A stretch of DNA of 18,020 bases from Candidatus Thorarchaeota archaeon (GCA_016839605.1 JAEOTX010000201.1:1-18020), one strand, 5' to 3'; counted from the first letter of the stretch, positions 312 through 1,439 are shown. Program-made: numbers and translations. The notes: generated by a model from the letters alone, not told the origin.

Positions 312-1439
312 CTATTGGTCTGCTGCTTCTTGGGATTGAATTCTCCTAGCAATGGACTCGTAATCAGTTTCAGAAAGCCTACCATCTTGTCTTCTGCGGT
401 TGGCTTCATCCAGTAGTGTCCAAGAAACTCCCTTCTTGATATATCCTAGCTTTGTGAGACGTTGTTCCAATTGGGGCTTACTACCCAAGTCATGCGGGAG
501 TTCAATCTTTGAGCATCTAGAAGCTTGGTATAGCTGTTTCTCAACATGGTCTGGAATCTCTCTTGTCGCTAATGCGTAGATTTTGGCCATGGTCAAAAGT
601 GCCCTTGCTCCTAGGTCTTCCGATGACCATCCTGCGTCTGTTCCCACTATGCAGATTTTCGATCTCCGGACACATTTCTTGAGACAATAATCACAGATCA
701 CTGGTTCAAGAACAGCATCCCCTTTCGAGAGATCGACCTTCACAATCCCTTCATCAAGTTCCAGGATACAGTGTGTGCTAGTTGTGCCGACACCAAATGA
801 TTCTGCGTTCTCCCTGATTATGCTCATCTCTTCCTTCGAATTTGGAGGCAATTGATTCGGGCTCAGAATTGGATCCTGCTCGGGACATGCCTCCTCGTCC
901 AATAATACGATGCAAGGTAGAGCTATCTTGGAATCATCACCACCACGCAGCTTTTCGGCAAAGGAGTCTACTGTGTTTCCTACGGATTCTGCATGATAAA
1001 CGGTGGGCTGGGTTCTTAGAATCTGTGTGATTCTCTTAATAGCAATTTCAGTTTCTCGTCCACTTCCAACAATGGCTACGAGCAGGGATGTTCTTGATCT
1101 ATCTGTGAGCATCCTGTACAAATCTGCAAATGAATCAGCTTCCTCAGGTCGGAGTACTATTATTGCCCCACGATGGCCTCTCATAAACGTTTGAATGAGG
1201 CCCGGAAATCTTTCGGTTGTGGGTAATGCCCACAGCTGAAGCACAGCTTCACCACCATCATCGAGCCTACACCTTGATACCCCAATTCCAACTCCCACAG
1301 TGGAATGTAGCTGATACGCCACTGTGCCTTCTGAGGCAATATTGAGAAATCCTGTTTGCAGAGCGGCATTTACTCCAAGAACCAAAGCCTTGAACATGAC
1401 TCTTGCATTGTCAGGGGTTTCATTTGAAGAACGATTCAC
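312..1439 (-). CDS. Degenerate Rab/Ras-like small-GTPase domain (pseudo-GTPase) fused to a Cys-containing domain and a SHOCT-like C-terminus
   Basis: 375 aa, GTG start. FKALVLGVNAALQT, STVGVGI, LQLWALPTTERF and TFMRGHRGAIIV line up with Rab FKLLLIGDSGVGKS, STIGVDF, LQIWDTAGQERF and SYYRGAHGIIVV. Cys at 249, 252, 256 and 263. The terminal LLDEANRRRQDGRLSETDYESIARRI is SHOCT-like. Confidence 0.75.
   Translation of the reverse strand: MNRSSNETPDNARVMFKALVLGVNAALQTGFLNIASEGTVAYQLHSTVGVGIGVSRCRLDDGGEAVLQLWALPTTERFPGLIQTFMRGHRGAIIVLRPEEADSFADLYRMLTDRSRTSLLVAIVGSGRETEIAIKRITQILRTQPTVYHAESVGNTVDSFAEKLRGGDDSKIALPCIVLLDEEACPEQDPILSPNQLPPNSKEEMSIIRENAESFGVGTTSTHCILELDEGIVKVDLSKGDAVLEPVICDYCLKKCVRRSKICIVGTDAGWSSEDLGARALLTMAKIYALATREIPDHVEKQLYQASRCSKIELPHDLGSKPQLEQRLTKLGYIKKGVSWTLLDEANRRRQDGRLSETDYESIARRIQSQEAADQ

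Follow-up and report, generated by a model that had tools for sequence, protein, structure and literature searches.

Small GTPases of Asgard archaea are studied as forerunners of the switches of eukaryotic membrane traffic. They include Thor-Rab (PDB 7EZB, Tran et al. 2024), which has no C-terminal prenylation cysteine (PMC10933270), and unannotated, rapidly evolving Ras-superfamily sequences of Asgard archaea are mentioned in the parts of the text of Vargova et al. that were searched (bioRxiv 10.1101/2024.02.28.582541). PseudoGTPases, in the literature searched, come mainly from eukaryotes, with some from bacteria. The pG1/pG2 domains of p190RhoGAP (PMC5593906) and the N-domain of AAGAB, assigned to ‘class I’ (PMC12490416), have a conserved G-domain fold minus the nucleotide motifs, lie in multidomain proteins, and are proposed to act through protein-protein contacts. 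Publications joining the terms ‘pseudoGTPase’ and ‘archaea’ were general reviews of pseudoenzymes or pseudokinases, and the literature searched described no pseudoGTPase family from archaea.

Analysis of an 18,020-nt stretch from a Candidatus Thorarchaeota archaeon (GCA_016839605.1, JAEOTX010000201.1:1-18020; hereafter the window) uncovered a gene, P0001, whose product joins a Rab-like domain lacking the nucleotide motifs to a Cys-rich domain. The original prediction, made from the sequence, had read 945-1397 as a maintained Rab-like pseudoGTPase with degenerate G motifs, recognizable flanking Rab motifs, and an intact reading frame; this range corresponds to aa 15-165 of P0001. The frame is unbroken over 312-1439 on the minus strand and begins with a GTG codon, where orthologues have ATG at the same position. 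The features of the locus are as follows.

2-301, minus strand: SLOG cluster-4 / TIGR00725 gene, cut by the contig end (Pfam PF18306, E 1.5e-33)
312-1439, minus strand: pseudoGTPase and Cys-rich-domain gene (P0001), 375 aa, TAG stop at 312-314
945-1397, minus strand: Rab-fold N-domain without nucleotide motifs, aa 15-165 (phmmer match to Ypt1, AF2, Foldseek, dN/dS)
1353-1376, minus strand: G1/P-loop remnant GVNAALQT, aa 22-29 (direct translation)
1206-1232, minus strand: G3/switch II remnant WALPTTERF, aa 70-78 (direct translation)
1053-1070, minus strand: G4 remnant VGSGRE, aa 124-129 (Ypt1 alignment)
843-944, minus strand: variable linker with a conserved C185-P motif inside, aa 166-199 (alignment)
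315-842, minus strand: Cys-rich alpha/beta domain at the C-terminus, aa 200-375 (modelled separately in AF2)
651-695, minus strand: Cys cluster CDYCLKKCVRRSKIC with C249, C252, C256, and C263 (direct translation)
513-515, minus strand: C309, an invariant Cys and candidate fourth metal ligand (alignments)

Homology searches against PDB sequences with phmmer aligned aa 14-138 of P0001 with Ypt1 (1yzn/1ukv) without gaps (E 5e-7), and the same search matched Rab35, Rab1A/B, and about 190 other Rab chains; Thor-Rab 7EZB matched the N-domain at E 1e-4. This similarity to Rabs is well beyond chance. The score on the Pfam Ras family (PF00071) is 21.9 bits, just over the cut-off of 21.6, while Roc scores 21.3 bits, under its cut-off of 27; no COR family is among the Pfam matches of the C-domain, and LRRK or Roco chains are absent from the lists of its fold searches. 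Within its own genome P0001 ranks 29th among 30 Ras-family matches with 23.8 bits, and 17 canonical Rab-like genes score 120-167 bits. An AF2 model built with 20 homologues reached a pLDDT of 81 and a pTM of 0.73, with lower pLDDT over the linker. When the model N-domain was searched against the PDB with Foldseek, all of the best 50 matches were Rabs (best E 2e-7, TM by target 0.45-0.67), which is the small-GTPase fold expected of aa 15-165.

In the ungapped Ypt1 register, GVNAALQT lies opposite GNSGVGKS, WALPTTERF opposite WDTAGQERF, and VGSGRE opposite the GNKCD region, so that direct translation and alignment together bear out the original reading of all three motifs. The second Gly of G1 is replaced by Leu and its Lys by Gln, and both the Asp and the Gly of the G3 DxxG are gone; in the AF2 model, helix 1 begins at residue 25, leaving two coil residues at the place of the P-loop. 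Of the flanking Rab motifs, STVGV, LQLW, ERF, FMRG, GAIIV, and SFADL are all present, and a partial, unscored resemblance to RabF motifs can be drawn (VGVGI/IGVDF, LQLW/LQIW, ERFPGL/ERFRSI, FMRGH/YYRGA). P0001 has the G-domain fold in common with Asgard and eukaryotic Rabs (Thor-Rab, Ypt1/Rab1), and an ungapped alignment of ~125 residues that includes the Rab-like segments STVGV, LQLW, ERF, and FMRG. Unlike eukaryotic Rabs, and like Thor-Rab, it has no prenylation Cys at its C-terminus, which reads ...SQEAADQ. It differs from Rabs in general in the absence of G1, G3, and G4 and in a fused 200-aa Cys-rich domain that is found in no described Rab. With the Lys and second Gly of G1, the Asp and Gly of G3, and the NKxD of G4 lost, canonical GTP binding and hydrolysis would probably be impossible for this Rab-derived domain, these being residues that bind phosphate, Mg, and guanine. 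T29 and E76-R77 are kept, and we counted them against a full loss of nucleotide binding.

A word-index search recovered 31 homologue clusters of about 370 aa with 33-99% identity, whose source names are Thorarchaeota or Promethearchaeota; the Thorarchaeota names agree with the Asgard affiliation that had been assumed for the protein. The degenerate G1, G3, and G4 recur in all of these clusters and are kept across homologues down to 29% identity. Among 35 orthologues, the P-loop Lys site (28) holds Q in 27, M in three, L in three, R in one, and A in one, and never K, while the second P-loop Gly site (27) holds L in 32, R in two, and I in one; a single orthologue has a Gly standing in for the second P-loop Gly, one position earlier. 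At the G3 Asp site the same set has S, A, L, or T, the G3 Gly site is never G, the site of the switch II catalytic Gln is T/S/V, and NKxD is found in 0/35, P0001 itself having no [NT]KxD at G4. W70 is invariant and P73 is present in 33/35. One 92%-identical cluster has K at the Q28 position, still with Leu at the Gly site. Replacement motifs are conserved in the thorarchaeal orthologues ([DN]xALQ[TA]GF and LQLW[SA][LI]P), and they are among the 39 invariant columns of a 20-sequence alignment of the family. [quoted passage not shown] The earlier proposal that the switch and effector surfaces are kept holds in part: it applies to the segments, the best conserved of the family, but not to their residues, which are the family’s own (LQ[TA]GF, W[SA][LI]P).

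A six-frame search of 87 genomes of the class identified a full-length orthologue (E below 1e-30), essentially in single copy, in 51 of them, spread over 11 of its 17 genera; the remaining six genera gave weak cross-matches to ordinary Rabs, or nothing. Nei-Gojobori estimates for five pairs with unsaturated dS (0.18-1.1) put dN/dS at 0.14-0.17 over the whole gene (N-domain 0.11-0.19, C-domain 0.10-0.18). The gene diverges two to three times faster than its neighbours, with identities of 29-77% versus 64-84% for the SLOG protein and 66-92% for a PIN protein encoded upstream. The degenerate state is fixed, and recent decay is ruled out by the motifs that orthologues share and by the low dN/dS. 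An intact GK(S/T) or DxxG is missing from every close orthologue, and one has to go to a Helarchaeota protein at about 21% identity to P0001 to meet the nearest canonical P-loop in the family. Together, the fold, the fixed motif loss, and the low dN/dS support the original reading of a maintained pseudoGTPase, with loss of nucleotide binding as its predicted consequence.

These properties set the family beside the described pseudoGTPases. Like p190RhoGAP pG1/pG2 and AAGAB, P0001 has a conserved G-domain fold without the nucleotide motifs within a multidomain protein, and two features of class I, this fold and its evolutionary maintenance, were found here, with nucleotide binding predicted from sequence to be lost. 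It differs from both in its independent origin, from an archaeal Rab-like lineage, and in its partner domain. The family fits what Vargova et al. (bioRxiv 10.1101/2024.02.28.582541) say of divergent or unannotated Ras-superfamily members in Asgard archaea, although it is neither named nor characterized in the parts of that text that were searched; beyond what those parts describe, its conservation, the purifying selection on it, and the second domain that defines it are shown here.

An exhaustive HMMER search extended the family to 120 matches, and an HMM of the C-domain found that domain in 113 proteins of the collected set. Source names of its members include Lokiarchaeia, Freyarchaeota, Helarchaeota, Hermodarchaeota, and Promethearchaeota, and of 251 Asgard genomes sampled across the phylum, 77, from eight families, have the C-domain. 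When the N-domains of 85 two-domain members were aligned with eight canonical controls, GxxxxGKT was present in only one of the 85, the Helarchaeota protein P0081 (L027:1282-2355), which carries the NCBI name ‘Rab family GTPase’. Its P-loop reads GAVGTGKT, its DxxG is DIAA, and its G4 is AKAE, and it may be the least-decayed relative. Many members from outside Thorarchaeota retain the P-loop Lys and the WD (GxxExxK[ST]), and one subgroup retains an N-x-D remnant of G4, so that decay of the G motifs is graded across subfamilies and most complete in the thorarchaeal clade. A stand-alone C-domain gene, P0105 (239 aa, L053:4001-4720), lies downstream of a two-domain paralogue and a ubiquitin-like gene; the pseudoGTPase is thus not required for the C-domain to exist.

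The fused Cys-rich domain and the operon, both overlooked in the original prediction, hold the greater part of the information on function. Across 25 Asgard-wide members of the family, the domain has four invariant Cys (C249, C252, C263, and C309) and a further one, C256, that is conserved in at least 90%; G270, K286, and V299 are invariant as well, and P296 is conserved in at least 90%. Because four Cys are invariant, a single Cys4 metal site is the simplest reading, and C249, C252, C263, and C309 probably form one such tetra-cysteine site, most likely for Zn, with Fe-S possible. Folded alone from a 37-row alignment, the domain reached a pLDDT of 92.5 in AF2, with a helix, four strands (a short CxxC helix following strand 3), a loop, two helices, and a three-helix tail.

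Searches for relatives of this domain returned little. Pfam assigned no family to 37 members, with scattered single-member noise and a DUF3318 match in two of the 37 (E 0.17), and NCBIfam likewise assigned none. The best PDB profile match was a zinc finger at E 3, the best Foldseek match in the PDB had an E of 0.35, and the wide VIA search gave a best Z of 4.8 covering the terminal helical hairpin only. In the ESM Atlas, the search by shape gave a best TM of 0.45 (DUF4132/DUF7737) and the search by features no usable match. TRAPPC3/V4R, a four-Cys Zn domain known from Thorarchaeota (PMC10933270), was considered as an identity and rejected, as no such chain is in any of the fold lists. The last ~50 residues of seven tails gave no Pfam match to SHOCT at E up to 10.

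In Thorarchaeota the gene has a constant setting. A SLOG cluster-4 gene lies directly downstream on the same strand in all 12 diverse loci compared (pseudoGTPase identity 29-77%; 11 complete loci, and that of the window, which is cut inside SLOG), the two genes overlapping by up to 16 nt or standing up to 20 nt apart; in the window, SLOG starts 10 nt past the pseudoGTPase stop. A full SLOG orthologue scores 152.6 bits on TIGR00725. The next gene, in 11/11 complete loci, encodes a metallophosphoesterase of 285-304 aa with the PPP motifs GDLHG, GDYADRG, GNHE, and HGG. Upstream of the pseudoGTPase gene are a cupin gene on the opposite strand and two more genes, whose products are a membrane protein of 138 aa and a PIN protein of 604 aa. 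The entire ~12-kb block is syntenic in the family, and the adjacency of the pseudoGTPase, SLOG, and PPP genes may partly be inherited gene order. In Thorarchaeota, the pseudoGTPase, the SLOG protein, and the PPP phosphatase are likely co-expressed.

Where the pseudoGTPase gene accompanies the thorarchaeal SLOG (TIGR00725)-PPP pair, it is directly upstream on the same strand, but two genera have the pair alone. In five genomes from these genera (92-99% complete), PIN, cupin, SLOG, and PPP genes are present and the pseudoGTPase gene is cleanly absent. These loci (L108-L112, from genomes G077-G079, G081, and G082) present a clean presence/absence polymorphism, and the stretch covered at them showed no gene for the 138-aa membrane protein either. 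Since the five genomes keep SLOG and PPP alone, the SLOG protein and the phosphatase do not need the pseudoGTPase, whose gene is thus accessory to the locus and not obligate, and an obligate three-protein complex is weakened as an explanation. A modelled complex of the pseudoGTPase (35-row alignment) with SLOG (12-row alignment) scored 0.00 and was counted neither way.

Other parts of the window were also noted. The PIN-domain protein (604 aa, 2554-4368, minus strand) scores 24 bits on PIN_12, under the cut-off, and has no NCBIfam match; its conservation, with 66-92% identity between thorarchaeal genera, far exceeds that of its neighbours, and it is always in the syntenic block. Two giant ORFs on the plus strand, 5205-11747 (2180 aa) and 11542-18018 (>2150 aa), take up two thirds of the window, the second running off its end. 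Two further long ORFs, one at 102-416 on the plus strand, antisense to the SLOG gene and overlapping the 3′ end of the pseudoGTPase gene, and one at 1717-2022 on the minus strand, antisense to the cupin gene, are probably not genes, because their conservation mirrors that of the genes on the opposite strand.

Outside Thorarchaeota, the neighbours differ and vary, with one recurring exception, a gene for a ThiS-like ubiquitin-like protein. A diglycine gene of this kind (65-71 aa, ending VLP[RM]IAGG) is directly upstream of the two-domain gene in 3/3 sampled genomes of Asgard family f19 and likewise in the Loki/Freya record of member P0069, and on contig L053 (unassigned Asgard) it lies between the two-domain gene and the stand-alone C-domain gene. 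ThiS/SAMP-like genes adjoin family members at the following positions.

L029:4780-4977: ThiS/SAMP-like gene
L088:1744-1959: ThiS/SAMP-like gene
L089:2698-3006: ThiS/SAMP-like gene
L090:50-277: ThiS/SAMP-like gene
L053:3663-3869: ThiS/SAMP-like gene

This recurring neighbour raised an E2/UEV hypothesis for the C-domain, under which it would be a very divergent UBC fold (E2/UEV/RWD-like) that handles or binds a ThiS/SAMP-type protein, with the pseudoGTPase as a targeting scaffold and the thorarchaeal clade, which has no canonical E2 enzymes, keeping binding only. We consider this unlikely. The C-domain topology of a helix, four strands, a loop, and two helices is in its favour, and most VIA rows over the C-domain core are UBC-fold proteins, led by the BRE UEV (6gvw_C; Z 4.8, rmsd 3.7, 99 aligned) and followed by the UEVs of Vps23 (Z 4.2) and Tsg101 (Z 4.0), the UEV-like VPS37A (Z 4.1), FTS (Z 3.8), E2 enzymes (Z 3.9 and 2.7), and RWD (Z 3.9); the ThiS-like genes beside members in f19, the P0069 record, and L053 point the same way. 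All of these Z scores are, however, below 5 and within the noise range of the tool, where frataxin and MotA are similar. Aligned by hhalign with 17 Asgard E2s, the C-domain scored 18.4, a value that 96 of 280 block-shuffled templates reach, and homology to E2/UBC by sequence was dropped, leaving a weak structural lead only. The HPN motif is absent, Pfam UQ_con gives no match at E up to 1, and C263, which would align with the catalytic Cys of E2s, is one of exactly four invariant Cys, as better befits a metal ligand. No ubiquitin-like gene is adjacent in the thorarchaeal loci or in the sampled f9, f12, f18, f24, f27, and f28 loci. A search of 121 Asgard genomes for canonical E2 (PF00179) recovered it in 88, but in none of the 18 from the family of the window, several of which are 95-99% complete.

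Two other explanations concern the N-domain. It could still bind nucleotide, as a non-canonical GTPase or ATPase or in a constitutively bound form, and so serve as a switch and not as a scaffold. The most conserved N-domain positions (G22, L27, Q28, G30, F31, G49, G53, Q68, L69, W70, P73, and E76), the retention of T29 and of the switch II Glu-Arg, and the P-loop Lys, Ser/Thr, and WD frequent in relatives outside Thorarchaeota are all in keeping with this. Yet every thorarchaeal sequence lacks, all together, the P-loop Lys and second Gly, the Asp and Gly of DxxG, and NKxD; a bulky Leu occupies the site of the Gly through which the P-loop can wrap around the phosphates, and helix 1 extends into the P-loop in the AF2 model, and on balance a nucleotide-binding switch seems quite improbable to us. 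It would be far more surprising still if the gene were a functionless, decaying paralogue or pseudogene of a Rab-like gene: although it is the second-weakest of the genome’s 30 Ras-family matches, evolves faster than its neighbours, and is missing from six genera of the class, its ORF is intact and of constant length in 51 genomes, and a dN/dS of about 0.15, 39 invariant columns, and an Asgard-wide family speak strongly for function.

We therefore favour, with a probability of roughly 0.6, the reading of P0001 as a frozen-switch pseudoGTPase adaptor, maintained by selection, that carries a metal-binding module and is accessory to SLOG/PPP signalling. Its G-domain is permanently fused to a family-specific alpha/beta domain, probably with one Cys4 metal site, and we infer that the protein acts as a nucleotide-independent adaptor that binds other proteins. 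In Thorarchaeota, its likeliest role would be that of an accessory regulatory or targeting subunit of a module made up of SLOG (ligand-binding or nucleotide-processing) and a PPP Ser/Thr phosphatase, which it may contact physically. A broader proposal, which we regard as a long shot, is that of an Asgard-specific class of adaptors in which a frozen Rab-like surface would be coupled to a new metal-binding module, and this module would dock either a PP1/PP2A-type phosphatase together with its SLOG ligand sensor, in Thorarchaeota, or a ThiS/SAMP-type ubiquitin-like protein, in f19 and L053, the C-domain being either an unseen fold or a Zn-bearing derivative of the UBC fold. If true, this would give an archaeal precedent for pseudoenzymes that serve, eukaryote-style, as regulatory subunits in phosphatase or ubiquitin-like pathways.

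Two testable sets of partners come with the family, one being the gene pair for SLOG and the PPP phosphatase and the other a ThiS-like ubiquitin-like protein; they are useful because few Asgard GTPase-like proteins have identifiable ones. A nucleotide-free Rab-like module that occurs Asgard-wide, always with its own Cys-rich partner domain, would mean that ‘dead-switch’ scaffolding was already in place among the archaeal relatives of eukaryotes.
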